DNA from: Candidatus Magasanikiibacteriota bacterium
GTDB taxonomy: Bacteria; Patescibacteriota; Patescibacteriia; Magasanikbacterales; UBA922
Length of the DNA stretch: 64,000 nt
Assembly (NCBI GenBank): GCA_021648085.1
Contig: JAKITS010000001.1
Location: 45,434 to 109,433, forward strand
Direction: 5' to 3'
The notes below the pieces were generated by a model. It searched no databases and was not told where the DNA came from. It saw only the letters and a program-made list of their open reading frames with translations. Shown here piece after piece: positions 9,561 to 54,846 of the stretch (the stretch's first letter is position 1; every line of letters starts with the position of its first letter). Both the position numbers and the translations under genes were made by a program.

Positions 9561-9568
9561 TTTCTTTG

Positions 9569-9658: not shown

Positions 9659-9672
9659 AGTATTTTTTGTTT

Positions 9673-9898
9673 TTTAAATTCTTGTGGAGAGAGTGGGATT
9701 CCTCTCGCTCCGACTCGAGCCTGGATACTGCGCGTACTCGTATCCTTCTCATCCCACACACGACACAAGACTTTGTGTCGCTTCTATCCTGCGGAGAGAG
9801 TGGGATTCCTCTCGCTCCGACTCGAGCCTGGATACTGCGCGTACTCGTATCCTTCTCATCCCACACACGACACAAGACTTTGTGTCGCTTCTATCCTG
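9673..9898 (-). repeat. two tandem 108-bp units, each = 18-nt copy of tRNA-Ser(TGA) 3' end (AATCCCACTCTCTCCGCA) + terminator-like hairpin + conserved ~55-nt element
   Basis: units 9673-9790 and 9790-9898 nearly identical; directly abut the 3' end of tRNA-Ser(TGA). Confidence 0.8.
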
Positions 9899-9985
9899 CG
9901 GAGAGAGTGGGATTCGAACCCACGGAGGGCGCAAACCCTCAACGGTTTTCAAGACCGCCGCCTTCGACCACTCAGCCATCTCTCC
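9899..9985 (-). tRNA. tRNA-Ser (anticodon TGA)
   Basis: acceptor GGAGAGA/TCTCTCC, anticodon loop CTTGAAA, long variable arm, T-arm GGGTTCGAATCCC. Confidence 0.85.
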
Positions 9986-21223: not shown

Positions 21224-21299
21224 GGGTTCGTAGCTCAGTTGGTTAGAGCGCTTGCTCGACATGCAAGAGGTCAGAGGTTCGATTCCTCTCGGACCCACA
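21224..21299 (+). tRNA. tRNA-Val (anticodon GAC)
   Basis: GGGTTCGTAGCTCAGTTGGTTAGAGC...anticodon loop TCGACAT...GGTTCGATTCC. Confidence 0.85.
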
Positions 21300-21324
21300 G
21301 ATATTTTGAAACAGTCCTACAAAA

Positions 21325-21400
21325 GGGCAATTAGCTCAGTTGGTTAGAGCGCAGCACTGATAATGCTGAGGTCCCAGGTTCGATTCCTGGATTGCCCACA
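21325..21400 (+). tRNA. tRNA-Ile (anticodon GAT)
   Basis: GGGCAATTAGCTCAGTTGGTTAGAGC...anticodon loop CTGATAA...GGTTCGATTCC. Confidence 0.85.
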
Positions 21401-21477: not shown

Positions 21478-21882
21478 ATGAAAAATAAAAAAATTATTAT
21501 TGCATTTTTTGTAGGTTTGCTAATTGTTTGTGGAGGTATTTATTTGTGGCAAGCACAAAAAAATCCATTAAATTTTAAAAGTGATGATATTGGTAAATAT
21601 GTTTTGGAAATGAATAAATATGAAACAGAAAAGCCTAACAATTTTGAAAGAGCAAAATTTGGCAATGGAAATGATATTGATGTTGGTTCAAGTATAATTT
21701 CTCATAGTGTTTTTGTATTGACTGAGCAAAACTGGGACACTGGAAATATGGAAGATGTAAAAATATTTTATTTGGAAGAACGCGAACCGCCAGCTTGTGC
21801 ACAAGAAGATGTCTGTTTGGACTCAGATAAAACCACTTACTATGGCCCATTCCAAGGGAAAGTATTACAATTACTTCAATAA
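21478..21882 (+). CDS. membrane-anchored hypothetical protein (paralog A; C-terminus YYGPFQGKVLQLLQ)
   Basis: N-terminal TM; shares a ~70-aa domain and identical last 14 aa with 21997..22566. Confidence 0.5.
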   Translation: MKNKKIIIAFFVGLLIVCGGIYLWQAQKNPLNFKSDDIGKYVLEMNKYETEKPNNFERAKFGNGNDIDVGSSIISHSVFVLTEQNWDTGNMEDVKIFYLEEREPPACAQEDVCLDSDKTTYYGPFQGKVLQLLQ

Positions 21883-21996: not shown

Positions 21997-22566
21997 ATGA
22001 ATGAAGAAATGCAAAATGAAACACATAATATGCAAGATAATTCTAAAAATGTTTGGATTTTAGTGGTATCTATTATATTTACAGCTTTAATTGTTGGGAT
22101 TGGAGTATATTTTTTACAAAGTATAAATATAAAAAATATAGAAAAAAGAATGCAAACACAAAATCAAGAATTACAATCTAAAATAGAGGAAATAAAAGAT
22201 ATATTGGAAACAAAACAGGTTATCATCCAAACAGAAAATAGCGGTGATTTATTACAAAAACAAATAAAAACAACACAGCAAAATTTACCAGAATTTAATA
22301 CTACAGACGAATATGTTCTTATAATGGATGATTATAAAACAAGCAGACCGTCTGGTCTTATTAGGGCAAAATTTGGAAGTGGTGTTGATATTAATATTGG
22401 TTTGGATGGTGTGGCTCATAGCGTTTTTGTTTTGGTCGAACCTGATTGGAATGAAAACGGTAATTTAGATGATACAATGGTGTTTTATTTAGAATTGAAT
22501 GGAGATCCTAACATAGTAAAATATTACGGTCCATTTCAAGGGAAAGTATTGCAACTCCTTCAATAA
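21997..22566 (+). CDS. membrane-anchored hypothetical protein (paralog B)
   Basis: as above; followed by a hairpin + T-run terminator (~22590-22625). Confidence 0.5.
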   Translation: MNEEMQNETHNMQDNSKNVWILVVSIIFTALIVGIGVYFLQSINIKNIEKRMQTQNQELQSKIEEIKDILETKQVIIQTENSGDLLQKQIKTTQQNLPEFNTTDEYVLIMDDYKTSRPSGLIRAKFGSGVDINIGLDGVAHSVFVLVEPDWNENGNLDDTMVFYLELNGDPNIVKYYGPFQGKVLQLLQ

Positions 22567-22709: not shown

Positions 22710-23369
22710 ATGACTAAAAAAAGTGAAAAATTGGAAAAGTCTGAAGTCGAAGAAGACGGTGAAAAAAACGAAGATGAAACCTTAGAAGATGAATTAGATC
22801 TAACACAAGAAAAAAGCATATTTAGGAAAATAGGTAGTTTCTTTTTGGAATTAATAAAAATTGCGCTGTTGGCTGGAATAACTATCGGAGTTGTCCGTTA
22901 TTTCTTGTTTAAACCTTTTTATGTAAAAGGTCAGTCAATGGAGCCAAATTTTCATGAAAGAGATTATCTAATTATAGACGAAATAAGTTATCGTTTTGGG
23001 GAGCCAGAAAGAGGAGAGGTAATAGTTTTTAAAGCTCCGCTAGATAATGAAGATTTTTATCTAAAAAGAATAATTGGTCTTCCTGGAGAGAGGGTAAAAG
23101 TAGAAAATAGTAAAATAATTGTGTATAACAAAGATAATCCTGCCGGCGTTGTAGTAGACGAGAGTTATATAATAGAAGAAACGCCTGGTACATATTCTGT
23201 CACTTTGGCAGAAGATCAGTATTTTGTAATGGGAGACAACAGAGATGAAAGTTTTGACTCAAGGCGTTTTGGACCAATTTCAGAAGATACAATAGTAGGA
23301 AAGGCGTGGGTAAGAGGTTGGCCTTTTAGTAGGGTTTCCTTGTTCAATACCCCAAAATACAATTTTTAA
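22710..23369 (+). CDS. lepB: signal peptidase I
   Basis: 'KGQSMEPNF', 'YFVMGDNRDESFDSRRFGPI'. Confidence 0.85.
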   Translation: MTKKSEKLEKSEVEEDGEKNEDETLEDELDLTQEKSIFRKIGSFFLELIKIALLAGITIGVVRYFLFKPFYVKGQSMEPNFHERDYLIIDEISYRFGEPERGEVIVFKAPLDNEDFYLKRIIGLPGERVKVENSKIIVYNKDNPAGVVVDESYIIEETPGTYSVTLAEDQYFVMGDNRDESFDSRRFGPISEDTIVGKAWVRGWPFSRVSLFNTPKYNF

Positions 23370-25254: not shown

Positions 25255-25701
25255 ATGTCTTTAAGAGAACAAATAATAGAATCACAAAAAACAGCAATGT
25301 TGGAGCGCAATAAGGTACTACTTAGTACATTGCGTAATTTGTGGTCTGCGATAAAGAATGAAGAAATAGAAAAAAAGCGCAATCTAACTGATGAAGAAGT
25401 CCAAGCTGCTGCAAAGCGTCTTGTAAAACAATCTCAGGATGCATTACAAGATTTCAGAAAAGCTGGTAGGGAAGATCTGTCAGAAAATGCTGAAATAGAA
25501 ATAGAATTACTTAAAAAGTATTTACCAGAACATTTGAGCAAAGAAGAGGTTGAAAAAATAGTAGATAAGGTTGTAAGTGAAAACAGTGATAGTGATCTAA
25601 ACTTCGGAGTTTTGATGGGGGTGGTAATGCAACATGTAAAAGGAAAAGCAGACGGCGCACTTGTGCGTCAGTTGGTTGACAAACGCTTGAAGTCTAAATA
25701 A
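25255..25701 (+). CDS. yqeY: GatB/YqeY-domain protein
   Basis: 148 aa, typical YqeY length and composition; conserved rpsU-yqeY linkage. Confidence 0.75.
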   Translation: MSLREQIIESQKTAMLERNKVLLSTLRNLWSAIKNEEIEKKRNLTDEEVQAAAKRLVKQSQDALQDFRKAGREDLSENAEIEIELLKKYLPEHLSKEEVEKIVDKVVSENSDSDLNFGVLMGVVMQHVKGKADGALVRQLVDKRLKSK

Positions 25702-25707
25702 ATTCAA

Positions 25708-25787: not shown

Positions 25788-27791
25788 ATGCTTGTCTGGA
25801 TGAGAAACAAAAAATTAGTCAAAAAAGCTACTGCAGTCTTTTATATTATGATTGCAGTGGTTTTTTTGTTTTCAATTTTTTCTTTTAGTGGTACCACAGA
25901 AGTTTACGCGCAAGGTGATACTTTTGGATTGGAGAGTGTTGACAGTGTCACAGAGCTTGCAACACAAGATATTCGCATAACAATTGCTAAAATAATACGT
26001 GTATTTTTAGGACTTTTGGGTATTATTGCTTTGAGTATTATTATTTACGGGGGTTTTACTATTATGACCTCTGCCGGCAACGAGGAAAAAGTTGCAACTG
26101 GAAAGAAAATACTTGTAAACGCTGTTATTGGGTTGGTTATTATCTTATCTTCGTTTGCTATTACTCAGTTTGTATTATCTTCACTCCAAAAAGCTACAGG
26201 AGGATTGGCAGGGCTTGGTGGAACAGCAAGAGCGCCAGGTATTCAAGTGTTTGCAGGTAGTGGATCTTTTGGAAAAATTATATCAGATCATTTTCCAGAT
26301 AGAGATCAAAGAGATGTAAGTAGAAATACAAAAATTTCTGTCACTTTCAATGAATCTATAGACCCTTCAAGCATTGCGATAGACTCAAATGGAAATGGGG
26401 TTTTTGGAGATTGTGTGACACCAGATTTAGCAGTTTTTGACTGGAATACTCAGTGCGATGTTTTAAATAAAGATGCTGTAAAGATTTATTCTAACGACGA
26501 CGCGGATTCTCTCATAGATTCTGCGGTAATAGTCACAGAAACAGATGGAAATATTCTTACTTTTACAATAAAACCTCTTGAATTATTAGGAAATCCAAAT
26601 GAAAATGTATGGTATACAGTAGATCTTACAGAAAAAATACTTAAAATAGATACAGGAACAAGTGTGTTTGATAATGACAGAGATGGGCATTATTTTTGGG
26701 AGTTTGAGGTGGGGACACTTTTAGATTTTGATCCGCCAAAAGTAACATCTGTTTTTCCTACTATGAATTTGGATGTTTCTAGAAATACAATTTTACAAAT
26801 AAACTTCAACGAGCCAATGGATCCCACATCTTTACAAGGTATTTCAGGTTCTGGTTTTACAAATATTATTTTTGGAGATACTGCTGTTTCTGGAGAATGG
26901 AGAATTACAAATGGTTACAAAACAGTAGAATTTGTGTCAACCGAAGCTTGTGGACAAAATAGCTGTGGAGATGTTATGTACTGTCTTCCTGTAGAATGTC
27001 CTGACACAGATTTAAATTGTACAGTTCCTTATGAAGTTTTGGTTCGAACTGCGGAGTTAATTTCAGAGAAAAATTCCGAGGCTATTCCTTTTACGGGTGT
27101 TATGGATATATCTGGAAATGCATTAGATGGTAATGCTGATGGTGTTTCAGACGGAAAACCAGTAATAGAAAATCCTATAATTTTGGATATTTCAGAAAAA
27201 GTACCCGATAATTATTTTTGGGAATTTGGTGTAATAAATGAAATAGACAGAACATCTCCATATATAGAAAATATTTTTCCAGGAATTGACCAGGAAAATG
27301 TAAGAGGGTCAGAGCCAATTGAAGTTGGTTTCAGTATGATTATGTGGTCATCATCTTTAAAACAGGCTGAAATACAGGAGTATCCAGCAAACGAGGGTGG
27401 AATGGCGGATATTTGGTTTAATATAGGGTCTAAGGTTGTGGCAGATTCAAATGGAATTCAAAAAACAAATATGATTATAAAACATAGAGAGTTTGGACCA
27501 AACGGTTTACCGCTTCATTATTTCTCGTCTGTTTCCAGTGATATTAAAAGTATAAACCAAAATTGTGTTTATCCTGGAAAAGGACCGAGTGGAGATAAAA
27601 ACACCTCACCAACTTGTGTTTACAAAGAAGATAAAGATGGTAATGTGGTAGAAGATTCAAATTGTACACCTGTAAATTTACAAGCTGATACAGACACCGG
27701 ATGTGTGCAAACTGCAGATCCAGAAGGGCTTACACAGCCAAACTTAGATGATTGTATTTCATTTTTAGAAAGTGTTAGTCAAATAGATTAA
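25788..27791 (+). CDS. surface protein with VirB2/TrbC-pilin-like N-terminal membrane domain and Ig-like/Cys-containing extracellular region (667 aa)
   Basis: signal peptide, 'DTFGLE..VTELATQDIRITIAKIIR', two hydrophobic helices separated by 'TSAGNEEK'; first ~125 aa ~60% identical to start of next gene. Confidence 0.5.
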   Translation: MLVWMRNKKLVKKATAVFYIMIAVVFLFSIFSFSGTTEVYAQGDTFGLESVDSVTELATQDIRITIAKIIRVFLGLLGIIALSIIIYGGFTIMTSAGNEEKVATGKKILVNAVIGLVIILSSFAITQFVLSSLQKATGGLAGLGGTARAPGIQVFAGSGSFGKIISDHFPDRDQRDVSRNTKISVTFNESIDPSSIAIDSNGNGVFGDCVTPDLAVFDWNTQCDVLNKDAVKIYSNDDADSLIDSAVIVTETDGNILTFTIKPLELLGNPNENVWYTVDLTEKILKIDTGTSVFDNDRDGHYFWEFEVGTLLDFDPPKVTSVFPTMNLDVSRNTILQINFNEPMDPTSLQGISGSGFTNIIFGDTAVSGEWRITNGYKTVEFVSTEACGQNSCGDVMYCLPVECPDTDLNCTVPYEVLVRTAELISEKNSEAIPFTGVMDISGNALDGNADGVSDGKPVIENPIILDISEKVPDNYFWEFGVINEIDRTSPYIENIFPGIDQENVRGSEPIEVGFSMIMWSSSLKQAEIQEYPANEGGMADIWFNIGSKVVADSNGIQKTNMIIKHREFGPNGLPLHYFSSVSSDIKSINQNCVYPGKGPSGDKNTSPTCVYKEDKDGNVVEDSNCTPVNLQADTDTGCVQTADPEGLTQPNLDDCISFLESVSQID

Positions 27792-27793
27792 TT

Positions 27794-30700
27794 ATGAGAT
27801 TGTTTAAGTCAAAATTTTTCCTATCAATATTTTTTACACTAGTTGTAGTTTCTTTATTTTTTGTTTCGGATATAACTGCTGTTTTTGCACAGCAGGCAGA
27901 TACTTTTGGTTTGGTGGAGGTCGGTCAAGTTACCGAGCTTGGAACGCAAGATATTCGTGTTACAATTGCAAAAATAATAAGAACACTCTTAGGTTTGTTG
28001 GGTGTTTTGGCTGTGTCTATTGTTTTATACGGAGGTTTTGTATATATGACTGCTGGCGGAAGTGAAGATAAACTTGGGCAGGCAAAGAAAATAATTATAA
28101 ATGGGGTTATTGGTTTGGTGATAGTTATGTCTTCTTTTGCAATTACACAGTTTGTCTTGTCGAGCCTTTCAGATGCAACAGGCTCGGGTAGTGTTGGGCT
28201 GTCTTCAAATAATTGTTCAAATACAGAATATGCTATAAACCATCCAAGTGAATGTTTTTCAAATTCAAATTCAGCTTGCACAAAATTTCCATCTTTTTGT
28301 AATTCAGCAGACTTCTTTTTTGTAAAAAGCATAACACCTTCTACACCAAACGGAGCAACAGGAATGAATAATATTGTTATAAGAGCAGTATTTAGTAAAT
28401 CTTTAGCATCAAATACAAATGTAGATTCTATATTTTCAGTTGAAAAAGATGGTATTTCTCAGCCTTTATCTATAAAACTTTCTCAATCTAGACAGGTGGT
28501 GGAGGCAACATTTAGAGCTACCACACCTTTGTGCGATGGGACTGTTCCACCAAATGAAACTTGTTTAGAGTTGGGTGATTTTACTATAAAAATTAATCCA
28601 GATATAAAAGACACAACAGGTAGAGAATTAACAAAAAATATAAATGGGCAGGAGTACCCTGTTTCAGCAGATTTTTCTGTGGATGTTGAGAACATAGACC
28701 ACACAAGACCAACTGTCACAAGTATGACAATAGATGGTTCAAATGCAGAAAATCAAAATATTACAATTGGAGATGCACATTCACTTAGAGTTGCAATGAT
28801 AGATAATACTGGAATTGGTTTTGTAAATATAAACATAAAAAATATAGACACAGGAAAAGTTATAGTAGAGTCTTTTGAGGGTCCAAATCCACTGGACGGA
28901 TCTTCTGGGGAATTTGTTATAGATTATCCTATTATATTGGGGGCTGATATAAATTCACTAGATAGATTTGATGTTTCTGTCACAATTTACGATATAGATC
29001 ATAATAGTAGTGTAAGTATTTTAAGCTTTATAGCTCTAGCAGAGAGCTGTACTAATGGTGTTCAAGATGGAGATGAAACAGGTGTTGATACTGGTGGTTC
29101 TTGCTCACTTTCTTCTGGTAGTTTTTGTGATGAAGATTGGCAGTGTGCCTCTCAAAAATGTGTAAACAACGAGTGTGTTGCTTGGCCAATGATTACAGAT
29201 ATTGATGCTTGGGATGGTGGATCTGGAAACTGGATTACAATTGCAGGACAGTTTTTTGGAGATAAGGAAGGTCTTGTTGAGTTTGGTACAGATTCCAATG
29301 GGGATGGCGAGATAAACGACTTAGATGTGTGGGTTAAAGCCGGTATTGCTATTTGTAGGAGTTTAACTACATGGAAAAACGATTGGATTGTAGTCCAGGT
29401 CCCAGATGATTCAGTTTTGCCAATAGGTTCAGAAAGTGCAATTCGTATTACTCTTGGAGACGGTACAGGGCTTAGTGATTCTACTGTCGATAGTCATGGT
29501 TCCATATCTGGACCAAACAATGGTTTGTTTACAAAAAACGAAATAAAAAGACCTAGTATTTGTGCCGTTGAATCTGTTTTGGGTTCTAATTCAGCAAAAC
29601 CAGATGCTGGTTTTGCTGTAATAGGAAAAAACTTCACAGACGATAAAACTGGAAATAAATTTGAGTTTGGTGGTGTAGAATTACCAACATTAATATGGGG
29701 AGATTTGGAAATTACAAGTAAAATACCGCTAAATACAAATGCTGGTAAGGTCTCTGTTCAGGTTGAGGTTGGTGGAGAAAGAAGTAATACAGTTCCTTTT
29801 ACTGTTTTGCCAATTGATAAAAATTTAATACCTTCAATTTCACTTGTAAACCCAGAAAATATAACAGTAGGAAGTTTTGTTACGCTTTCTGGAACTGGTT
29901 TTGGTGAAACAACAGGAATTGTTTATATATCTCCAAATTCTGGTGCTACTTGTACAGATATTTTGGCAGAAGGTTGTATTCAGGTGGAAGTTTCTTTACC
30001 AAATTTTTGTGGAGATACTTGGAGCTCTAATCAGGTTATTATAAAAATTCCAGATAACACACAATTTGGTGTGTACTATTTGGTTTTACAAAATGATTTT
30101 GGACTTCGTACAGATGGATCAGCTTTTGTTTCTGTTGTTGAGGGAGACCCTAGTCCTAGCATTTGTAAGATGATTCCACAGGCCGGGCCAGCACCACTGC
30201 CTGTTGGACATCAGGGTTTAGAATTTTTTGGGATTAACTTTTCTACAGACCCAACAGTATATTTTTGGTCTAAAACCGCAACAGAAGACGATCTTAATAC
30301 TTGGTTGAACGCAACAGGGAATGATGTAAATCAAATAGATCCGGATACTCATATTGTGAGTTATATCCCGAGTACGATAGAAGGATATTCAATGAAAACA
30401 GGTCCAATTGCCATCAGCTCTATCGATGGTGTTGTTAGTAATGCTGTAAATTACGAGGTTTCAGATTGTCGTGATGTTGGTGCTCCTGTTGGGTATCAGT
30501 GTTGTTCTGTTGGGCCAGACGCTGGAACAATAAAACCAAATGAATTTATTTGTGCAGGAGAGACAAGAGATGCTGGCTATGCTTGGAGATTTACGAGTGG
30601 TCTCCTGCCAAATATACCTTTTGTGGTCGAACAGTGCCCAGAATCAAGCGGTTCCGGAGTACCATCTCCAAGTCCCTGGATAAATAGAAAGCAGGGAGCA

Positions 30701-33700
30701 AATACTTGTTTAAATGCTTTGCCAACAGTTTTGTTTAGTGTGGGAATGAGTGATAGCTCACTTTCAGGAAATATTAGAGTTATTACTTGTGGAGAAGATA
30801 GTTTGCCACAGTGTGAAGATGAGGATATTTTTATTGATGTGTCTGCAGATTTTTCTGCTGGTCTGCGGTCTGAAGGATTTGTTTTAAACTTAACTAATAG
30901 TAATGGGGATTTAACACCAAACACTTGGTATAGGGTTGAACTTGGAAGTGGTTTGCAATCTCAAGAAATTAGGAGTATTTTGGGTATAGATCAGACAGTA
31001 AATGAAAACCTTTTAAAAACAAAATCTTGTGGAGACGGAACTTCTTATTGTTTTGAATTTAAAACAGGAGAAGGTTTATGTACCTTAACTTCTGCAGGTA
31101 TAATGCCAGGTACTCATACAACAAAAATACTAGGTCCTGTTTTGGACAGAAGATTTTCAAAAGAAAGTGAAACTTCACTGTTCTACCATATATTTGGAAA
31201 AGGAGATCAAGAGTGCACGGTTTTAGATGTTGATGGTTTCGGCTGGGACTGGAAGAGTCAAGATGATAATAAGGCAACTGTTGAGATAAGTGTTGGAGAT
31301 GGTTTTGTAGATACTAGAGCAATTGTAAATGCTATAGAAAATACAGCACCAGGAGATGTGAATATTTTTGCAATTTCAAGTAATTCACCTATCTCTCCTG
31401 TAAGTAGTTTAATTATAGATTTAGCAGATCCAAAAGTAGAATCGTATTGGCCAAACTGTGCAGAATCTTGTGTAAATAGTGGTGTTGGTGTCAAATTCAA
31501 CAGAGATATGAATGTTGCTGAATTTGTTTCAAATTTTAGGATAAGTGAGTGTATAGATGAATTTTGTAGTATCACATCAACCATCCCAATACAGTTTGAA
31601 ACTCTGAAAAAAAATAATTTAAATGTATTTCCTGTTGGAAATCTACAGCCAAACACTTGGTATTTTGTAGAGGTTTTTCCAGGAATTCATGCTATAGAAA
31701 AAGAAAATCCTCTTACTTATGGTAAAACAGTGGAAGCTTTTTCTTGGAAGTTTAGAACAAAAAATGACAGTACACTTTGTGGGATTGAGGATGTTTTGGT
31801 TGCCCCAACAAAATATATATCGCGTTTAATAGGAGATAGAAAAGAATATAAAGCAACTCCAATGAGTTTAGCAAATGAGTGTAGTTCTGCTGGACAAAGA
31901 TTAAATCCTTGGAATTTTGCATGGGGTTGGGAGGTCGTGGATACTCAAATAGCTAGTATCTCCTCTTTTGAAACTTTTGGAAAGTCAAAACCATTTTGCA
32001 CAACCTCTTGTTTGTTGGCAGGAAGTGTTGTGAGTTCAGATACTCAAAATGTAACTGCTTTGTGTGGAAATGGGATATTGGAGAGTGGGGAAGACTGTGA
32101 GTTGGATGACCCAGAAGAAGTATTAGGGGTTAGCTGTAGTTTAAGTTGTAAAAGAGTTGGGTCTGTAGCACCAACTTGTGGAGATGGGAGGATAGAATCG
32201 GCAAAAGGTGAGCAATGTGATACAGACGATGCTCTAACAGCCGAGGCTTGTAATGATAATTGTTTGTGGAAAGGTTCTTCAAAAGTAGAGCCAAAATCAA
32301 CAGCGCTAAATATTTCTTGGTGTGGAAGTGGTTCTGTAACATTTGGCGAAAGTTGTGATATTAAAGATCCGCTAACGCAAGATAGATGTTCAAATAAGTG
32401 TTTGAATTTGGGAACGCCTATCTCAAGTTATTGGTGTGAGCAAAATAAAACAAACGAATTACCAGACACAACTTTGGTAGGGCAGTCTGCAGAGTGTTTA
32501 TCTTCTGTAAGTATTTGTGGAAACGGATTATTGGAAAATGGAGAAGCTTGTGAAATCATTGCTAGTACTACTGTTGCGTTTGTGGGTGTTGGAAATGTTA
32601 CAGTTTCAAATGCTTCAGATGTTTGCTCTACTTCTTGTTTAGTTTCAAATGCTTGTGATGAACCAAACATGCCAACCTCAATAAGCTGTGATCCAAAGAT
32701 AGAGGAAGGTTGCACGCCAGAGTGTCTAAATTCTGGCTCATCTCTCGACTATTCAACACCTAGTCTGTGTAACGATGGAATTGTAGGGTTAGGGGAAGAT
32801 AGTTTATGTGAATTATCATCTACCGTACCTTTTGGTCAAAATCCATTGCAAATTGTAACAGCTATTGGAGATGGTGTTGTAAATCCAGATACAAATTCTC
32901 AAGATACACAAATAAGAGCTAGAGCTACAAAAACAAAAGATATAAATGGAAATCCTGTTGATATATCATCAGAATATGGAGAATCTTTATATTCATTACA
33001 GTGCGGATATACAAAATTTGAAGAGCTAATAAATAATAGATTTAACGACTGCCCTAATGCTATTGATGGTGTTGCTACGAACTCTTGTTGTTATACCAGA
33101 CCTCAAAGAGTAAGTGAGTATCCTGTGGATGGTTCTGGGATTGGAAATTCTAGTGCACCAGTTTGTTTGAATTCTTTTATAGAGGTTCATTTTGATGAAG
33201 AGATAAGCAAGTCTTCTGTAAGTGAAAATATATTATTAGCAAAAGGTTATCCGGGTGGATATGATTGTTCTGTAAGTGGAGAGGATAATGTGACAGAACA
33301 GGTGAGAAATTTACTTACTTTGCAAGAAGTAAAAGATGGAATTTGGACAAGGGTTTGGAAGGTTATAAAAAGATTTTTTACAAAAGCTGTTGGTTTGGAA
33401 GTTTTTGCAAGTATGTTTAGTGATTCAGATGTAGAGGTTTGGTGTGTGGGATCTGCAAATTTTAGAACAGATGTCTTGTATGAGGAAGATGTTGATGGAA
33501 ATATACTTTCCACAGATATTTCTATTTCTTTAACAAAGCTTTTGGATGTAGATACTGTTTATGCTGTAGTTTTGAAAAATGAAATTGAAAATTCTGAAGG
33601 TGTTGGAATATCTAGTCCAGATAGTTTAAGTGGTACTTTGGATGATTCATGGATTTTTAAAACTGGAGACGAGGTTTGTAAGATAGACAGCGTTTTTGTA

Positions 33701-36700
33701 AGACCGAGTGCAAAATTATTTGTAAAACCAAACACAACTAGCACTTTTTTTGCATTAGCTCAGAGTACTTCAAAACAAAGAATTGTGCCAATTGAAAATG
33801 TGTATGATTGGGAATGGCATTGGGCACCATTAAATAATGCAATTTTTGATATTTCTGCTTCAACTAGTTCTATAAATATAATAGCTTCTAAAGATTTAGA
33901 AGGAAGTGTTCTTGCAAGTGCAAATGCTGTAATTACTCACGACGCAGATCAAAACAATAGTCAGTTTGGAGAGTATTTTACCGGAATTACAAAATTGTTT
34001 GCTTTATTTTGTGAGAATCCTTGGCCACAATACGAATATTTTCCTTTTGAAGAAGGTATATCTTTTGGATCTTTGGGAAATATAAGTGGTTTTGAGCGGG
34101 GAGTTTTTGATGGCTCTACAATTCCAAAAGTTAGAATAGGTGGAGTATTTGAGTACTTTAATTTCAGTATGTCTTATTGTGCGGATAGTGGATCTTCTGA
34201 TAATAAAGCAGACGATCTTCCGTTCCTAAAACCTATTGTTCTTGTAAATGAATTTGATGTAGTTTCTGGTAATTTAGTTCAAGTTGGTGATAAAAGTTTG
34301 TCTGAGGATACTTTAAAAAAATTCTTCTTTTTCAATGAAAAAAATGATGATGTAATTGGTGTTCAAATTTTTATGAATCCGCTCAGGCTTACTGCCCGTG
34401 AATGGTATATAGAAAAATTTGGATCAGACATTGGAATGGATCAAATAACAGTTGCAGGTTATGATGCGTTGTCAGATAATAATAGTATTTATATAAACGC
34501 ACTAAATCAAGGTTCAAATGGAGATATTTATAATAATATTTACTTATTCAGTTTAAATGGAAGTGCGCAATCAAACACCCGTGAAGTTTTTGATATGTTG
34601 ATGGACTCACTTAAAATGAATATAAATATAAGTGAGTTTAATAGTTGCTCACAAGATGGGGATTTTAACACACCAAATATACAAGAAACAGTAGAGTGTA
34701 GCACAGACTTCGAATGTTTAGATGTTGCAGATTCTGGAGGGGTTTGCGCAAATGCACAGACAAAATTCAAAAGAGATTGGACGCGTCTAACAGACTTAAG
34801 GAATACTCAAGAAAAATTAGATTTTTATAAATTAGAAAATAATTCTTATCCAAAATTAGCTTCTGGATCTTTTATTCCAAACTACACAGTTTCCAAATGG
34901 TCATCTTGGGGAAACTTAAGTAATCTAATTGGTGGAGCGCCGTTAGATCCAGTAAACAAGTGGTCCGATTGTGGTGATTTGGATCCACAGACTTGTTGGG
35001 CTGCAGATGTTTCTGAATATGTTTGTCCAGAAAAAACTAGTGTGTACGAATATTCTTTTGACAGTATAACTAGTGATTACACGCTTCACATCCCTTTTGA
35101 ATATTTTGATTTATCCTCATCTGTAGTTTCAGGATTTTTGGACACTTCAAAAATTAAAATAGACAGGTGGTGTACACCGGGCGACATATATAACCCATCT
35201 TCTGGTGTGTGTGGAGATGGTGTAGTAAATGTTGGTGAACAGTGCGACCCTCCAAATTCTATAAATTACACAAATCAAGGTGTGGTTGGATCACAACAAT
35301 CTGGTTTTTGTGCAGATAGTTATTTGAACCAATCTATTTCTTGTATAAATTCAGCAGATTGTGGTTTATATTTGAATGTTGATGTTGAGCGATCAAAAAA
35401 GAGTATTTTTTCAGATACTGGTTCTGTTTGTTTCGGTGGAGTAGCAAAAGATTTACCATACGACATTTTAGCACATAAAAATGATGAAAGTAAATTATAT
35501 GGAATTAGTTGCCAAACATCTTCTGATTGTAAGTCTAAGGAAAATTATTTTAAAAATTTAACAGCAGGCGGATCTGGTGTACTTGGATTGTACAATGTTC
35601 AAAATGATAGTTTTGCTGAAGAGTCTTTAATTGGTGAATTTATATATAAAAACTTAGATGGAATAAAATGTCTTTCTTTACGGGATTTAGATATAGAATT
35701 TAGAAATGCTGGAAGTGGGACAAGGGGTACAAAACCTGTGGAGTGTAGTATTTCTACAAGTAATCCAATAATTGGATCTTGTAATAATGTAGGAGAATTG
35801 GCGCCAGCTCAGTGTACAGATAAGTGTACAATTAAATATGGAAGTTGTACTTCTTTTACAGACTGTGGAAACGGAAGGGTCGAAATTGGAGAAAATTGTG
35901 ATGATGGTGTAAAAAATGGAGAGTATGGAAGTTGTAATTTAACTTGTGATGGAGTTAGTGATCAGTATTGTGGAAATGGTCAAAAAGATGGTGCAAATGA
36001 AGTTTGTGATATAAATAATTTGGGTTTATCTGGATATTGTAGCAAAGATAAAAACATAAGCTGTTCTGATGATTTGGATTGTGGTGAGGTTAGAAATTTT
36101 GGTAGTTGTGGATATGAATATGTTTCTAATGTTCTAAAGCCTGTGTGTTCCTCAATAGATAGTAATGGTAATGTCCAACTTTCAAATTATCAGAATGGAA
36201 CGCAAGTGTTTTGTTATGACAACAGTTGTGATAAATTCGATAAAATTTATGGAACTTGTATTGCATCAAGTGATCCAACATACAGTTTTAATAAAGATAA
36301 TACTTGCGCTTGGGATTGTCAGGATTTTGGAGATTATTGCGGAGATGGAATTGTGCAAGGTGATTACGAAGCTTGCGATGATGGAAATTCAATAGACGAT
36401 GACAGTTGTGATAATTTTTGTGAAATTAATCTTTTAGCTACCACAAGTCAAGCAAGCTCTGCACCAAGTTGTGGAGATGGTGTGGTAGAAGAAGATGGTA
36501 CAGAAACTTGTGATTTGGGAGAGGATAATGGAATTAAATGTAGTCCATCTTATGGAGAATCTTGTAGTTACTGTTCACTAGATTGTGAAAATATTTTGAC
36601 AGTGGACCCTGTCGCGTATTGTGGAAATGAGACTGTTGATTTTAAATTTAATGATTTTAGTGATTGTTCAGATACTGGGAATATTTGCTTATCCGAACCT

Positions 36701-37981
36701 GTTTATGAGGCTTGTGATTTAAATAATAATAAAGTAGTCAAAAGAACTTCTTCTGGTCAAATATTAACACTTGAATGTGAAGACCAAGGCGCTTATTCGT
36801 GTAATAGTTGTAATGCACTTTCAGACAATTGTGCCAAATGTGTACTAGATACTTCAGGATTACTATCTGTTCCAAAAATCGCAATCCTAAATCCAATGAT
36901 AGGAAATGTGGAGCCTTTGGACAAAAACAGTGTGGATCGTTGGGGTTTTGAAGAGACTTTAGTTTTGGTGAGGCCAGAACCACCTGCAGGTTTTATTCAA
37001 AATCCTTATTTTGGATTTACAAGGCTTACAATGGAAAGTAGTATATATAAAGATCCAACACAGCAAAACTATATGATGGTTGAAAGTGGAACTGGTACTT
37101 ATGCACCTTATAAAGAACACACAATAGAAGGTAATGATTTATGTAGCGGAGAATATGGCGTTTATTTCAGTAATAAAGCTATATTTAATGCTGTAAATGG
37201 TTCAGAAGAAGGTTTTGAGGATAGTTATACAGATTTAACTCGTGGGGATCTTTATGATTATCCAGTAGACGGAACTGCTGAAATAAACAATGAAATAGTA
37301 TATTCTCCAGCTGTGCCACTAGAAGTATTTAGAGTAGTTGTAAAATGGACAGATAAGGAAGCTCGCTCAAATGTTTCGTTTAGTGGAATTGTTCAAAGTA
37401 ATTTTCTAAATCCAGCAGGAGAGTTGAACGGGGCTACTACATTTACAGACGCTGCTGCAGACAGAAAAATATGTAATCAGATAGGTTTAGTGAGTAATTT
37501 TCCAATAGAAGGTAGAAGTTTACCTAACTTTAATGAGTTTAGCAAATATTGGTGGCCAGAAAATACAGCTTGTGCTTACAATAAAAGAATCTATGTACAC
37601 CCAGAAGGAAGTATGGCTAGAACTTATACACAGTCTTTTACTATAGATACTTATAATGATAATGCAGACTATTCTTTTGTTGTGCAAGCTGTAAGTGGTT
37701 CTTTGGAAGGTTCACCAATAGCATCATTTCAGAATAGTAATTTGGAAGTAGAGGTGTACACTCATCACAGTGGACAGGTTCCTAGGGTTTCGGTTTTTAA
37801 ACCTACTCACACTTTCAAAATTAACCAATCACAAAAAAGCAGTAATAATGTGGCAAGATATTGGAGTGTATTTAATATTAAGAGGGTTTCAACCTCAGAA
37901 GGTTCAAAATATGAAATTCAAGCAATAGGAACAAACGGAAGTATAGAATCAACTTGGGATGAGGTTGTTCCTAATTTTTAA
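27794..37981 (+). CDS. giant (3395 aa) secreted/membrane-anchored cysteine-rich protein: VirB2/TrbC-like N-terminal domain + IPT/Ig-like modules + multiple Myxococcus-type cysteine-rich repeats (CG[DN]G...GE.CD)
   Basis: single uninterrupted ORF; >15 'CG(D/N)G..E.GE.CD(D)' repeats between aa ~1380-2600; start ATG 2 nt after previous stop. Confidence 0.6.
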   Translation: MRLFKSKFFLSIFFTLVVVSLFFVSDITAVFAQQADTFGLVEVGQVTELGTQDIRVTIAKIIRTLLGLLGVLAVSIVLYGGFVYMTAGGSEDKLGQAKKIIINGVIGLVIVMSSFAITQFVLSSLSDATGSGSVGLSSNNCSNTEYAINHPSECFSNSNSACTKFPSFCNSADFFFVKSITPSTPNGATGMNNIVIRAVFSKSLASNTNVDSIFSVEKDGISQPLSIKLSQSRQVVEATFRATTPLCDGTVPPNETCLELGDFTIKINPDIKDTTGRELTKNINGQEYPVSADFSVDVENIDHTRPTVTSMTIDGSNAENQNITIGDAHSLRVAMIDNTGIGFVNINIKNIDTGKVIVESFEGPNPLDGSSGEFVIDYPIILGADINSLDRFDVSVTIYDIDHNSSVSILSFIALAESCTNGVQDGDETGVDTGGSCSLSSGSFCDEDWQCASQKCVNNECVAWPMITDIDAWDGGSGNWITIAGQFFGDKEGLVEFGTDSNGDGEINDLDVWVKAGIAICRSLTTWKNDWIVVQVPDDSVLPIGSESAIRITLGDGTGLSDSTVDSHGSISGPNNGLFTKNEIKRPSICAVESVLGSNSAKPDAGFAVIGKNFTDDKTGNKFEFGGVELPTLIWGDLEITSKIPLNTNAGKVSVQVEVGGERSNTVPFTVLPIDKNLIPSISLVNPENITVGSFVTLSGTGFGETTGIVYISPNSGATCTDILAEGCIQVEVSLPNFCGDTWSSNQVIIKIPDNTQFGVYYLVLQNDFGLRTDGSAFVSVVEGDPSPSICKMIPQAGPAPLPVGHQGLEFFGINFSTDPTVYFWSKTATEDDLNTWLNATGNDVNQIDPDTHIVSYIPSTIEGYSMKTGPIAISSIDGVVSNAVNYEVSDCRDVGAPVGYQCCSVGPDAGTIKPNEFICAGETRDAGYAWRFTSGLLPNIPFVVEQCPESSGSGVPSPSPWINRKQGANTCLNALPTVLFSVGMSDSSLSGNIRVITCGEDSLPQCEDEDIFIDVSADFSAGLRSEGFVLNLTNSNGDLTPNTWYRVELGSGLQSQEIRSILGIDQTVNENLLKTKSCGDGTSYCFEFKTGEGLCTLTSAGIMPGTHTTKILGPVLDRRFSKESETSLFYHIFGKGDQECTVLDVDGFGWDWKSQDDNKATVEISVGDGFVDTRAIVNAIENTAPGDVNIFAISSNSPISPVSSLIIDLADPKVESYWPNCAESCVNSGVGVKFNRDMNVAEFVSNFRISECIDEFCSITSTIPIQFETLKKNNLNVFPVGNLQPNTWYFVEVFPGIHAIEKENPLTYGKTVEAFSWKFRTKNDSTLCGIEDVLVAPTKYISRLIGDRKEYKATPMSLANECSSAGQRLNPWNFAWGWEVVDTQIASISSFETFGKSKPFCTTSCLLAGSVVSSDTQNVTALCGNGILESGEDCELDDPEEVLGVSCSLSCKRVGSVAPTCGDGRIESAKGEQCDTDDALTAEACNDNCLWKGSSKVEPKSTALNISWCGSGSVTFGESCDIKDPLTQDRCSNKCLNLGTPISSYWCEQNKTNELPDTTLVGQSAECLSSVSICGNGLLENGEACEIIASTTVAFVGVGNVTVSNASDVCSTSCLVSNACDEPNMPTSISCDPKIEEGCTPECLNSGSSLDYSTPSLCNDGIVGLGEDSLCELSSTVPFGQNPLQIVTAIGDGVVNPDTNSQDTQIRARATKTKDINGNPVDISSEYGESLYSLQCGYTKFEELINNRFNDCPNAIDGVATNSCCYTRPQRVSEYPVDGSGIGNSSAPVCLNSFIEVHFDEEISKSSVSENILLAKGYPGGYDCSVSGEDNVTEQVRNLLTLQEVKDGIWTRVWKVIKRFFTKAVGLEVFASMFSDSDVEVWCVGSANFRTDVLYEEDVDGNILSTDISISLTKLLDVDTVYAVVLKNEIENSEGVGISSPDSLSGTLDDSWIFKTGDEVCKIDSVFVRPSAKLFVKPNTTSTFFALAQSTSKQRIVPIENVYDWEWHWAPLNNAIFDISASTSSINIIASKDLEGSVLASANAVITHDADQNNSQFGEYFTGITKLFALFCENPWPQYEYFPFEEGISFGSLGNISGFERGVFDGSTIPKVRIGGVFEYFNFSMSYCADSGSSDNKADDLPFLKPIVLVNEFDVVSGNLVQVGDKSLSEDTLKKFFFFNEKNDDVIGVQIFMNPLRLTAREWYIEKFGSDIGMDQITVAGYDALSDNNSIYINALNQGSNGDIYNNIYLFSLNGSAQSNTREVFDMLMDSLKMNINISEFNSCSQDGDFNTPNIQETVECSTDFECLDVADSGGVCANAQTKFKRDWTRLTDLRNTQEKLDFYKLENNSYPKLASGSFIPNYTVSKWSSWGNLSNLIGGAPLDPVNKWSDCGDLDPQTCWAADVSEYVCPEKTSVYEYSFDSITSDYTLHIPFEYFDLSSSVVSGFLDTSKIKIDRWCTPGDIYNPSSGVCGDGVVNVGEQCDPPNSINYTNQGVVGSQQSGFCADSYLNQSISCINSADCGLYLNVDVERSKKSIFSDTGSVCFGGVAKDLPYDILAHKNDESKLYGISCQTSSDCKSKENYFKNLTAGGSGVLGLYNVQNDSFAEESLIGEFIYKNLDGIKCLSLRDLDIEFRNAGSGTRGTKPVECSISTSNPIIGSCNNVGELAPAQCTDKCTIKYGSCTSFTDCGNGRVEIGENCDDGVKNGEYGSCNLTCDGVSDQYCGNGQKDGANEVCDINNLGLSGYCSKDKNISCSDDLDCGEVRNFGSCGYEYVSNVLKPVCSSIDSNGNVQLSNYQNGTQVFCYDNSCDKFDKIYGTCIASSDPTYSFNKDNTCAWDCQDFGDYCGDGIVQGDYEACDDGNSIDDDSCDNFCEINLLATTSQASSAPSCGDGVVEEDGTETCDLGEDNGIKCSPSYGESCSYCSLDCENILTVDPVAYCGNETVDFKFNDFSDCSDTGNICLSEPVYEACDLNNNKVVKRTSSGQILTLECEDQGAYSCNSCNALSDNCAKCVLDTSGLLSVPKIAILNPMIGNVEPLDKNSVDRWGFEETLVLVRPEPPAGFIQNPYFGFTRLTMESSIYKDPTQQNYMMVESGTGTYAPYKEHTIEGNDLCSGEYGVYFSNKAIFNAVNGSEEGFEDSYTDLTRGDLYDYPVDGTAEINNEIVYSPAVPLEVFRVVVKWTDKEARSNVSFSGIVQSNFLNPAGELNGATTFTDAAADRKICNQIGLVSNFPIEGRSLPNFNEFSKYWWPENTACAYNKRIYVHPEGSMARTYTQSFTIDTYNDNADYSFVVQAVSGSLEGSPIASFQNSNLEVEVYTHHSGQVPRVSVFKPTHTFKINQSQKSSNNVARYWSVFNIKRVSTSEGSKYEIQAIGTNGSIESTWDEVVPNF

Positions 37982-38028: not shown

Positions 38029-38403
38029 ATGAAGAGAATTCTGATAGTAGGTTTGGTTATATTTGTAACAGCAGGAATATTGATAACTGCTTTGTTGTTG
38101 TTTTCTAATTCAAAAGAGAAGAATAATTCTCAAAAAAAAATAGATAATACACAAGAACAAATAACAAAAAAAGTAAATCAATTTCCAGATGATTTGGATA
38201 TGGATGGAATTTTAGATGTAGAAGAGGAAAAGCTTGGAACAAGTAATAAGGAGTTTGATACAGATGGGGATGGACTTAGTGATAAAACTGAAATAGAAAT
38301 TCTAGGAACAGATCCGCTAAATCCAGACACAGACGGAGATGGTTTTGCAGATGGTTATGAGGTTATAAAAGGTTTTAACCCAAACGGTGAAGGTACTTTT
38401 TAA
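38029..38403 (+). CDS. N-terminally anchored small protein with thrombospondin-type-3-like Ca-binding repeats (DTDGDG..D)
   Basis: TM helix; 'DTDGDGLSDKTEIEILGTDPLNPDTDGDGFADGYE'. Confidence 0.5.
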   Translation: MKRILIVGLVIFVTAGILITALLLFSNSKEKNNSQKKIDNTQEQITKKVNQFPDDLDMDGILDVEEEKLGTSNKEFDTDGDGLSDKTEIEILGTDPLNPDTDGDGFADGYEVIKGFNPNGEGTF

Positions 38404-38480: not shown

Positions 38481-39344
38481 ATGTTTGATGATAAACCAAC
38501 AGACAATAATAATAAATTACCACCAAATTTGCCAACAAGTGAACCAGAAGATATTTTTGCAGGATCAGATGAAGATGTGAAAAGTGAACAAGAAGTATTA
38601 CAAGAACCGGAAAAAATGCCAGAACCAGAGGTTGAAAAAGAAACACAAGAAACAGCATTAAATGTTGGAGTTTTGCGTGCAAAAGCAGAAGGTGTTTCAG
38701 AGGAAAAACCAAAAGAAACTGAAATTAATCCTGTAGAGAATGAATTAAAACCAGATGAAAGTGGATTGCAACCAATTGATCATACAAAAAAAGTAGAAAT
38801 GCAAACACCGCCAACACAAAGTGGTGATCTTAAAAAGGAACTACAAAAATATGAGGTGAAAGAACCAGGTATGGCAAAGGCAATTATGATTGGTTCTATA
38901 GTTGTAGTTGCTTTAATTGTATTGTTAGGTGGTGCGTGGTGGCTTTATGCTACTTTTATGGCGGGTACAGAAGAGAAAAGTCCATTTGTTGATGAAGTTG
39001 TAGAGCCGGAAGTTGTGGAGGAGGTTGTTATTGAAGATGTATTGCCAGAAGATGTTTTAGATGATGAGTTATTGTTTGGCGGCGCAGTAGATTCAGATGG
39101 AGACGGTTTGGATGACATTAGAGAGTCTGATATAGGAACAGACCCAAACAATTGGGATACTGACGGCGATGCTTTAAGTGATTATGATGAAGTAACAATT
39201 TGGAAGACCAATCCACTGGATGCGGATACAGACGGAGATGGTTATTTAGACGGAGCAGAGGTTACAGCTGGTTTTAGCCCTACTGGACCTGGGAAATTAT
39301 TTGATGTGACAAATCTGGATTCTAGTAATACATCAACAAAGTAA
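38481..39344 (+). CDS. acidic membrane protein with C-terminal TSP3-like Ca-binding repeats (paralog of 38029..38403)
   Basis: central TM; 'DSDGDGLDDIRESDIGTDPNNWDTDGDALSDYDEV..DADTDGDGYLDGAEV'. Confidence 0.5.
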   Translation: MFDDKPTDNNNKLPPNLPTSEPEDIFAGSDEDVKSEQEVLQEPEKMPEPEVEKETQETALNVGVLRAKAEGVSEEKPKETEINPVENELKPDESGLQPIDHTKKVEMQTPPTQSGDLKKELQKYEVKEPGMAKAIMIGSIVVVALIVLLGGAWWLYATFMAGTEEKSPFVDEVVEPEVVEEVVIEDVLPEDVLDDELLFGGAVDSDGDGLDDIRESDIGTDPNNWDTDGDALSDYDEVTIWKTNPLDADTDGDGYLDGAEVTAGFSPTGPGKLFDVTNLDSSNTSTK

Positions 39345-39359: not shown

Positions 39360-40550
39360 ATGTTCGACAAAAAAGAACAAAAAAATACAGATAATTTATC
39401 ACAAAAAGATGTTGTAGATAAAAAAGTAGAAATGGATTTTAATACAATTCCAGATGTTTTTTATGGTGGAACAGAGCCAAAAGTAGAATTTAAAAAGACA
39501 CAAATCAAAATGGTAAAAGAAAATAAAACAGAAATGGTAGATAAGCCAAAACAACCAGAGTTGATACAACCAAAAAAAGTAGAAGAACAGAAAAAACAAA
39601 ATAAACCTATCTTGAGATCTATAAAAGTAAAAACACCAAAAAAGAAATTGTCTATTTTATGGATAATTTTGATAGCAGTTGGAACTACTGTCACAATTGT
39701 GCTTATTTCTTGGTATTATTTAAATCAAGCTGGGTATTTCAGTGATGTTCAAGAAGAAGGTATACTACAAGAAAATACGGATATAAAAATTCCTGTACAA
39801 ATTCCTACAGAAACAGTGGTAGATGTTATAGTCTCAACGACTACCATCACTACTACCACTACCACGGAAGAGGTTGTAGAAGAGCCGGCTTCTTTGCAAG
39901 AGCCTGCTTTAGAGTTCCCTTCAATCAACTTTAAAAATACAGAAGATCTGGACCAAGATAATATGACAGATTTAGAAGAAGAGGTTTTCTCTACAGATAG
40001 TAGTATTTGGGATTCGGATCAAGATAGTTATTACGATGGGCAAGAGCTTGTAAATCTATACAATCCAAAAGGGTTTGCGCCTGTTCGAATTATAGATTCT
40101 GGACTTGTCCGTGAATATGTAAATCCAATATGGAAGTATAGAATTTATTATCCAGTTGTTTGGGAGGTTGCAAGTGTGGACATTGATGCAAACCAGATAT
40201 TAATAAGTAGTGCAACTGGTGAATATATAGAAATTAGAGCATTTAAAAAAGATAAAACACAAACATTTTTGAATTGGTTTAGTGAAAAAGCAGTAGATCA
40301 GAAATTTACAGATTTATCAGAATTTATAAATCGTTTTGAACAGGATGGTTATAGAAGAGCGGACAATCTTGTGGCCTATTTTATACAAGACGAGACGGTT
40401 TTTACGGTTGTGTATCATCAAAATACAGAAGGTAATATAAAGTATAGACATATAGTTGAGATGTTGTTGCAAAGTTTTAGATATGGTAATTCTGTAGATA
40501 TAGATATTACAAAACAGCCTTTGGTTGGATTTGGAGAAGGTGAACTATGA
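39360..40550 (+). CDS. membrane protein with degenerate TSP3-like acidic repeat and C-terminal globular domain
   Basis: TM 'ILWIILIAVGTTVTIVLISWYYL'; 'DLDQDNMTDLEEE..DSDQDSYYDGQE'. Confidence 0.45.
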   Translation: MFDKKEQKNTDNLSQKDVVDKKVEMDFNTIPDVFYGGTEPKVEFKKTQIKMVKENKTEMVDKPKQPELIQPKKVEEQKKQNKPILRSIKVKTPKKKLSILWIILIAVGTTVTIVLISWYYLNQAGYFSDVQEEGILQENTDIKIPVQIPTETVVDVIVSTTTITTTTTTEEVVEEPASLQEPALEFPSINFKNTEDLDQDNMTDLEEEVFSTDSSIWDSDQDSYYDGQELVNLYNPKGFAPVRIIDSGLVREYVNPIWKYRIYYPVVWEVASVDIDANQILISSATGEYIEIRAFKKDKTQTFLNWFSEKAVDQKFTDLSEFINRFEQDGYRRADNLVAYFIQDETVFTVVYHQNTEGNIKYRHIVEMLLQSFRYGNSVDIDITKQPLVGFGEGEL

Positions 40551-54785: not shown

Positions 54786-54846
54786 ACTCGAACCCGCAAC
54801 TTCCGCCGTGACAGGGCGGTGCTCTAACCAATTGAACTACCGATCC
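54773..54846 (-). tRNA. tRNA-Asp (anticodon GTC)
   Basis: reverse complement GGATCGGTAGTTCAATTGGTTAGAGC..CCTGTCACGG..GGGTTCGAGTCCCGTCCGGTCCG. Confidence 0.85.

Follow-up and report, generated by a model that had tools for sequence, protein, structure and literature searches.

Two neighbouring proteins of ABY1 Patescibacteria with a VirB2-family pilin module and large predicted extracellular domains

A 64,000-nt stretch of the genome of a Candidatus Magasanikiibacteriota bacterium (GCA_021648085.1, contig JAKITS010000001.1, positions 45,434 to 109,433; hereafter the window) contains two adjacent forward-strand genes encoding proteins of 667 and 3395 amino acids (aa), here called A (25788..27791) and B (27794..37981). 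Both proteins are very probably anchored by a complete VirB2-family pilin module from which they display large, disulphide-rich Ig-like ectodomains, as members of an operon of five surface-protein genes that Patescibacteria of class ABY1 inherit vertically. Textbooks describe the pilins of the VirB2 type as small proteins; their presence in monoderm systems was recognised only of late, and the Patescibacteria require them for epibiotic growth. In Southlakia epibionticum an essential pilin array lies inside the cluster of type IV secretion system (T4SS) genes (PMC10633639), and a survey of 3,035 Patescibacteria genomes with the PF18895 and PF04956 profiles reported arrays of 2–11 small pilins, with PF18895 pilins typically, but not universally, encoded with virB4 and other T4SS genes (1135 of 1948 assemblies; Quinonero-Coronel et al., 2025, PMC12102498). 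An initial reading of the window made from the sequence only had considered the fusion of such a module to a giant protein to be seemingly uncharacterised, and a search of the full-text literature, with subscription journals outside its coverage, brought up no account of large or giant ectodomains joined to a VirB2-type pilin module.

The pilin module and the domains it carries

The coordinates and sizes that the sequence-only reading gave for the two open reading frames (ORFs) are exact. Gene A corresponds to NCBI L3J07_00355, there started at Met5, and gene B to L3J07_00360; they are separated by 2 nt and are translationally coupled. The N-termini of the two proteins share 59% identity (77 of 130 residues; BLASTP E 2e-33), in agreement with an earlier estimate of about 60%, and BLASTP returns no alignment between them beyond the N-terminal ~135 residues. 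In profile-profile comparison, residues 1–580 of A align with residues 1–714 of B and later parts of B match A more weakly, a pattern which suggests that A is a "mini-B". Each protein has three hydrophobic segments, all within its first ~135 residues and consisting of a signal peptide and two helices that flank a short charged turn; this topology, already proposed in the sequence-only reading, is confirmed by hydropathy analysis and by the hairpins in AlphaFold2 models. A sequence scan revealed neither an LPXTG motif nor a C-terminal hydrophobic segment nor any later transmembrane (TM) segment in A or B, so that the ectodomain must hang from the hairpin, and a motif scan of both proteins detected no class III prepilin motif (G / F-x-x-x-E).

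The signal peptide of A spans aa 1–41 (25788..25910; hydrophobic segment 9–39), with a predicted type I cleavage site after VYA and before QGDTFGL, at which an A-x-A/Q motif is kept in orthologues. That of B, delimited by hydropathy and AlphaFold2, spans aa 1–32 (27794..27889) and would be cleaved after VFA and before QQADTFGL. The pilin hairpin follows at aa 65–129 in A (25980..26174; AlphaFold2 helices 62–93 and 99–137, predicted local distance difference test score, pLDDT, ~90, and 88 for the model of A) and at aa 52–121 in B (27947..28156; helices 54–86 and 91–128, pLDDT >90). Both hairpins match the T4SS_pilin profile PF18895 above its gathering score of 26.6 bits (36.8 bits for A, 38.7 bits for B) and over nearly its full length (positions 8–71 and 3–71 of 71), and A also exceeds the cut-off of the NCBIfam model NF045849, "pilin-like conjugal transfer protein" (45.6 bits vs 40). 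Neither protein matches PF04956 (TrbC/VirB2) directly at E ≤ 1. Among 69 close homologues (31–61% identical), all of which match PF18895, 30 match PF04956 as well (best E 2.4e-8), and the link to that family is therefore transitive; the VirB2/TrbC-type N-terminus posited in the sequence-only reading is borne out through PF18895 and through these homologues, but not by a PF04956 match of A or B themselves.

The free homologues of the hairpin are mostly proteins of 110–240 aa, and the elements of the module recur in them: an N-terminal segment (DTFGL...DIR.TIAKIIR), the charged turn (MTAGG.E.K...AKK) and a C-terminal "..ATG". The loop shows the conserved pattern MT(S/A)(A/G)G(N/S)E(E/D)K..(G/A)KK, and the hairpins of A and B are 45–63% identical to free-standing pilins. 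These similarities support the view that the N-terminal domain belongs to the VirB2-like pilin family of the Patescibacteria and is not a generic signal-anchor. No other ORF of the window contains a pilin domain.

A disordered Gly/Ser-rich linker follows helix 2 (pLDDT <50 at A 142–156 and B 135–138), and in A a Gly-rich linker joins the hairpin to an ectodomain of all-beta tandem Ig-like domains with 12 Cys (aa 157–667, 26256..27788; Big_5 E 9e-14). The acidic ectodomain of B (aa 129–3395, 28178..37978) brings the protein to 450 Asp and Glu vs 218 Lys and Arg and to 132 Cys, of which 109 are conserved in a 28-sequence alignment. It comprises an IPT/TIG domain (aa 609–670, 29618..29803; 33.2 bits on the segment vs 20.9) and several Big_5 Ig-like domains, the best of them at aa 1212–1322 (31427..31759; E 9e-15), as had been recognised from the sequence. 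The Myxococcus-type cysteine-rich repeats ascribed to B are likewise present, the "cysteine-rich acidic repeat" model TIGR02232 scoring 44.9 bits against a cut-off of 20.8, with five stretches resolved by HMMER; they are fewer, however, than the more than 15 copies first counted, a motif search finding nine strict CG(D/N/S)G..E.C(D/E) repeats, and their assignment to DUF4215 (PF13948) stays below cut-off (20.6–24.4 bits vs 27). They form one cluster at aa 1424–1672 (32063..32809; TIGR02232 E 2e-10) and another, delimited by TIGR02232 and motif search, at aa 2473–2931 (35210..36586). DUF4625 gives a weak match in B. Segment-wise scans of B against Pfam and NCBIfam leave about 40% of the ectodomain with no family match and identify no catalytic domain.

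A large orthologous family in a five-gene operon

The large size of B raises the question of assembly error, which the sequence-only reading had itself posed. B is 100% identical to the deposited Candidatus Magasanikbacteria protein L3J07_00360, encoded on a metagenome-assembled contig of 984,181 nt, and 119 giant homologues, which come from independent assemblies and in several cases lie on contigs of 0.3–1.2 Mb, are collinear with it; according to BLAST and the 28-sequence alignment, this collinearity extends nearly from end to end, with few variable inserts. Gene B contains no long DNA repeats and no composition breaks, and the ORF is not a chimera on these grounds. Since the N-terminal matches also pass curated cut-offs of hidden Markov models, there is hardly any chance that the 3,395-aa ORF is an artefact or that the N-terminal likeness is a coincidence or that of a generic signal-anchor.

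Homologues of B fall into at least 208 protein clusters of 2,000–5,900 aa, nearly all of which combine PF18895, Big_5 and TIG, to which DUF4215 or LamG may be added, and homologues of A into at least 349 clusters of 640–760 aa with 40–72% identity. At least 568 stretches in species-representative genomes encode relatives of A. A second pilin-domain ORF directly follows the A gene in 69 of the 70 kept loci with room downstream, and in 61 of these 69 the ORF is 1,800 aa or longer. The source genome is not alone in having this arrangement, which represents a large orthologous family. The names of records bearing the operon point to Magasanik-, Falkow-, Komeili- and Uhrbacteria, and Magasanikbacteria are placed in GTDB class ABY1 (supplementary table, PMC12102498). 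Many species-representative records with the operon are titled "uncultured Gammaproteobacteria bacterium" (L009, L013, L024–L026 and others), and one "Candidatus Udaeobacter sp.", titles that are evidently placeholders or mislabels. The pilin domain itself is far more widespread, with 81,549 cluster representatives at E ≤ 1e-3 in an exhaustive profile search, the best 150 matches of which include short pilins, A-like proteins of intermediate size, about 40 giants whose only pilin domain is N-terminal, and tandem-domain polypeptides. Many of the proteins P0191–P0311 (for instance P0201, P0192 and P0235) carry 2–17 tandem PF18895 domains, P0201 showing 17 PF18895 stretches in 1775 aa; such "poly-pilins" would be a further unusual architecture, or could be fused gene calls of pilin arrays.

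Three forward-strand genes follow the pair in the window. Gene C (38029..38403) encodes an N-terminally anchored protein of 124 aa with TSP3 calcium-binding repeats; gene D (38481..39344), conserved in position, a single-pass protein of 287 aa with an acidic cytoplasmic N-terminus and extracellular TSP3 repeats; and gene E (39360..40550) a single-pass protein of 396 aa with no family match, its end overlapping the ybeY start by 4 nt. Intergenic gaps in the operon range from -4 to 77 nt, and a terminator scan detected no terminator-like site between its genes. Promoter and terminator scan counts are at chance level, and the one promoter-like site before A (25676–25704) is not used as evidence here.

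The context was compared in eight loci (L001–L008) reached through giant homologues 28–38% identical to B. Their common order runs from LepB, HisRS, a small ORF and YqeY through the A-like protein, the giant protein, a TSP3 protein of ~130 aa, a TSP3 protein of ~250–290 aa and a protein of ~370–420 aa to YbeY, DAGK, FtsA, FtsZ and NrdR. The position of gene C is kept in L001 and L004–L007, is occupied by an unassigned 127-aa ORF in L002 and L003, and is empty in L008; gene E has a counterpart of ~370–420 aa, in the same place and with no Pfam match, in all the related loci that were fetched. In a wider set of 79 related loci, LepB, HisRS and YqeY lie upstream of the pair in 63–70, the housekeeping signal peptidase I LepB (22710..23369 in the window, forward strand) in 68; LepB is presumed to be the enzyme that processes the leaders of A and B. 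Three genomes have a free pilin ORF of 125–136 aa between the A-like and the giant gene (L062 11869–12276, L078 11731–12129 and L080 7065–7439). In L044 (9099–9902) a free pilin ORF lies directly upstream of A. With such an additional gene these loci become three-pilin arrays of small and modular members. In one lineage (L004 17709–21509 and L005 13038–16838) the giant gene is followed by an extra gene for a 1,266-aa LamG (Laminin_G_3) protein without a pilin domain, suggesting that modules may split off from, or join, the giant protein.

The hairpin is the best-conserved 50-residue block of B, with 63% column identity vs 20–50% elsewhere in the 28-sequence alignment, which is unexpected for a simple anchor. 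The hairpins of A and B also co-evolve. When pilin modules are compared across 73 genomes, A and B of one genome share 53.8% identity, as opposed to 42.8% for A and B from different genomes, 43.0% for A and A, and 45.7% for B and B (permutation p < 0.0005), and the nearest neighbour of an A module is another A in 56 of the 73. In a pilot comparison, the hairpins of A and B among the seven closest genomes were 55–73% identical. Without gene conversion or co-evolution, the distance between the paralogues should be independent of the genome of origin; the similarity within genomes thus points to mutual contact or to a shared co-evolving partner.

Pilus component, surface anchor or exported product

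In a pilin-based model, the Sec signal peptides of A and B would be removed by signal peptidase I, leaving a mature module that begins with a short segment and continues with two helices, which are joined by a charged turn on the cytoplasmic side (MTAGG-EEK--AKK); both ends of the module would lie outside the membrane. The Gly/Ser linker would join this module to an extracellular domain, which in A comprises ~510 residues of tandem Ig-like domains and in B ~3,260 residues made up of acidic, disulphide-rich repeats together with Ig-like and TIG domains. The hairpins of A and B may then pack against one another and likewise against free small pilins of the same lineage and the VirB6/VirB4 platform, in which case the bulky ectodomains would fit only where a short T4SS-type pilus or stalk ends, at its tip or its base. 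In that position the two proteins would constitute the adhesin that monoderm T4SSs otherwise lack, a counterpart of VirB5 or PrgB binding a partner cell or surface, a role suggested by the types of domain they contain. That the modules still act as pilins in this manner, with ectodomains that serve as an adhesin at one or the other end of a short pilus, has in our estimate slightly less than an even chance of being correct. A narrower version, in which the hairpins nucleate or cap a T4SS pilus as a hetero-oligomer and place the ~370-kDa adhesin and its shorter partner at the tip, in replacement of VirB5 or PrgB, appears unlikely. The retention in A and B of all pilin-specific motifs, together with the co-evolution of their hairpins, favours a pilin function. 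Support also comes from topology: all solved conjugative pili have N- and C-termini that face outward and a loop that lines the lumen (ter Beek et al., 10.64898/2025.12.18.695078), so that a C-terminal extension is topologically compatible with a pilus. The same preprint shows PrgF to be a VirB2-like pilin of Gram-positive T4SSs. The model is further favoured by the free pilin genes between A and B in three genomes, by T4SS genes in the source genome as possible partner machinery, by the lack of a recognised adhesin in these systems and by the precedent of modular type IV pilins.

The window does contain T4SS genes, all on the forward strand and identified by profile match: PrgI/VirB3 (2743–3174), followed by a TrsD-like gene (VirB4 N-domain; 3177–3860) and a VirB4 ATPase (3863–5752; NF045971 338 bits vs cut-off 325). 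They confirm the VirB3 and VirB4 assignments of the sequence-only reading, but no VirB8 model was matched, and they lie about 20 kb upstream of the pair, with housekeeping genes in between. The gene directly after VirB4 (5758–6324, forward strand) encodes a protein of 188 aa that matched no model, with a single TM helix near its N-terminus and ~130 aa in its C-terminal domain; this gene may be the one that had been called VirB8-like. It is followed by a gene for a ComFC-like phosphoribosyltransferase (6831–7532, forward strand), which fits the published remark that T4SS loci of ABY1 frequently contain comF. Directly upstream of PrgI, a gene at 995–2686 (forward strand) encodes a highly charged protein of 563 aa with a long (PEPK)n repeat, no TM segment and no family match beyond low-complexity.

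Free pilin genes occur in the same lineages as the pair, likewise away from virB4. Arrays of 6–12 PF18895 pilin genes (124–470 aa) are found at L088 (5984–14435) and L090/L091 (7708–10408) with no VirB4 within 10 kb; one of them adjoins N_methyl (type IV pilus) pilins, and another glycosyltransferases of the PMT_2/MptA type. For the genome of L021, Table S3 of PMC12102498 lists as VirB2 the genes 461, 463 and 531, all by the T_virB2 profile only and none numbered adjacently.

Several observations weigh against the pilin-based model. VirB4, PrgI and TrsD are absent from the 10 kb around the pair in every one of the 79 related loci, a gene neighbourhood that lends no support to the tie with a T4SS-derived apparatus drawn in the sequence-only reading, and neither a free small pilin nor a VirB6-like gene is visible in the 64-kb window. 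We know of no T4SS pilus that has so far been visualised in any Patescibacterium. Structure prediction of the N-terminal domain, proposed earlier as a check against VirB2 and TraA, did return a two-helix hairpin, but a Foldseek search of this model against the PDB found nothing significant (best E 0.56). The conjugation pilus of Aeropyrum pernix (8dfu) appears at rank 30 with E 4.4; helical hairpins are not discriminating, and the matches are non-specific, as would be expected of any such hairpin. A profile of the pilin alignment finds no relatives among PDB sequences, which include the solved VirB2 and TraA pilins, and neither do a profile of the A family or B alone; with sequence and fold searches against solved pilins not significant, pilin identity rests on the curated profiles. 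Amino-acid usage within genomes could explain part of the hairpin similarity, the conservation of B in length and in 109 of its 132 Cys resembles that of a structural protein more than that of a host-specific adhesin, and the fixed neighbourhood of housekeeping and cell-division genes equally suits a core component of the envelope.

In an alternative reading, the hairpin is a pilin-derived, self-associating anchor through which A, B and their three single-pass partners would build a calcium-stabilised, T4SS-independent surface layer or stalk array, a basic part of the ABY1 cell envelope irrespective of any additional contact with hosts. Such an anchor is favoured by the constant housekeeping surroundings and by the missing linkage to T4SS genes: the pair keeps an invariant position among LepB, HisRS, YqeY, YbeY, DAGK, FtsA and FtsZ with one-to-one orthology and no T4SS gene near it, B is collinear over its full length, and the TSP3 repeats of the partner proteins suggest a calcium-dependent assembly. 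Anchoring alone, however, would require neither the loop and N-terminal segment of pilins nor the highest conservation within the protein; the hairpins have stayed close in sequence to free pilins, whose genes are sometimes inserted in the operon, and surface-layer proteins are usually far below 370 kDa. We regard this alternative as the strongest competitor of the pilin-based model and as somewhat less probable than it. It is quite improbable, in turn, that A and B are substrates or shed products, with a hairpin that acts as a temporary export or retention signal before the ectodomain is cleaved and released as a soluble or matrix protein, or delivered through the T4SS. The disordered linker after helix 2 could be a protease site, but the operon contains no protease gene, a folded domain as long as 3,260 residues and rich in disulphides is implausible as a T4SS substrate, and the hairpin is conserved too well for a disposable signal.

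Beyond these genes, the window contains two adjacent paralogous genes (21478–21882 and 21997–22566, forward strand) for single-TM proteins of 134 and 189 aa, without a family match, that share a C-terminal domain ending ...YYGPFQGKVLQLLQ. A tmRNA (tag AKVVSRVKNVFANAFTTPSFASVLA) and five tRNA genes (two for Ser and one each for Val, Ile and Asp) are located at 56451–56847 (reverse strand), 9568–9985 (reverse), 21224–21399 (forward) and 54772–54846 (reverse). Over positions 1–64000, GC skew is positive nearly throughout, cumulative skew rises monotonically and nearly all genes lie on the forward strand, which fits a leading-strand location fairly near the origin. The low locus tags of A and B and the published remark that T4SS genes of Patescibacteria are frequently found near dnaA agree with such a position.

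Relation to known systems and implications

The closest known relatives of the module are the VirB2-like pilins of the Patescibacteria (PF18895), which share with A and B a signal peptide, a two-helix hairpin, a charged loop, an N-terminal segment and an occurrence as adjacent paralogues. These pilins consist of the module only, in ~110–240 aa, whereas A and B add ectodomains of ~510 and ~3,260 residues; their arrays are variable, with a mean mutual identity of 25% (PMC12102498), and they are typically encoded with virB4, whereas A and B each occur as one orthologous copy at a constant housekeeping locus, with hairpins ~43–46% identical across the 73 genomes and virB4 never within 10 kb. With the TrbC, VirB2 and TraA pilins (PF04956) and PrgF of pCF10, A and B have in common a signal peptidase I leader, two TM helices, a charged loop and outward termini. 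They differ from TrbC, VirB2 and TraA in lacking a direct PF04956 match and any significant sequence or fold match to solved pilins, and their locus has no relaxase or conjugation context; the head-to-tail cyclisation of VirB2 and TrbC would be impossible for them, given the giant C-terminus. The Pam pilus system of the candidate phyla radiation (10.64898/2026.03.03.709456) was considered and rejected as a relative, its donor-strand-exchange pilins being unrelated.

Type IV pili provide well-established cases of modular pilins (PMC8179133). PilB and PilC of Streptococcus sanguinis and CofB follow the same design logic as A and B, in which a small carrier is joined through a short linker to a bulky module, there expected to sit at the filament tip as an adhesin (PMC8179133). 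This is an analogy only, as a prepilin peptidase processes the class III signal peptide of type IV pilins (IPR012902), which have a single N-terminal helix, whereas A and B have a type I A-x-A leader and two helices; moreover, the largest modular type IV pilin cited has 860 aa (PMC8179133), compared with 3,395 aa for B and up to ~5,900 aa for its homologues. In the role proposed for them, A and B would resemble VirB5, at the pilus tip, and PrgB, anchored to the cell wall, to which they bear no relationship in sequence or domains: PrgB is LPXTG-anchored and VirB5 is soluble and helical, whereas A and B are anchored by the pilin hairpin. No VirB5-like tip protein has been found in monoderm systems (10.64898/2025.12.18.695078), and no PrgB-like adhesin was detected in the 3,035 Patescibacteria genomes surveyed (PMC12102498). 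As an extracellular protein of several thousand residues, acidic and rich in Ig-like domains and repeats, B is also akin to SiiE, the giant proteins of the Omnitrophota and the Myxococcus-type cysteine-rich repeat proteins, with the last of which it shares the TIGR02232 repeat. Such giant surface proteins are exported by type I or type II-like secretion systems, or are otherwise anchored, and none has been reported with a VirB2-type pilin module.

The A/B family extends the principle of the modular pilin from type IV pili to the T4SS pilin superfamily, with ectodomains that range from 500 to over 5,000 residues attached to an entire pilin module, in a one-to-one orthologous operon found in hundreds of species of an uncultured class. 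Genome surveys may count such proteins as plain "VirB2" or leave them "hypothetical", and matches to PF18895 cannot safely be assumed to be small pilus subunits. A and B are candidates for the missing adhesin of Patescibacteria T4SSs, and for attachment to a partner. Should their hairpins cap a T4SS pilus, the resulting attachment organelle, derived from a T4SS and conserved throughout ABY1, would form a class of its own, and A and B would be the first candidate host-recognition complex for environmental Patescibacteria of unknown host. Should the operon instead form a T4SS-independent part of the envelope, it would nonetheless reveal the principal architecture of the ABY1 cell surface.

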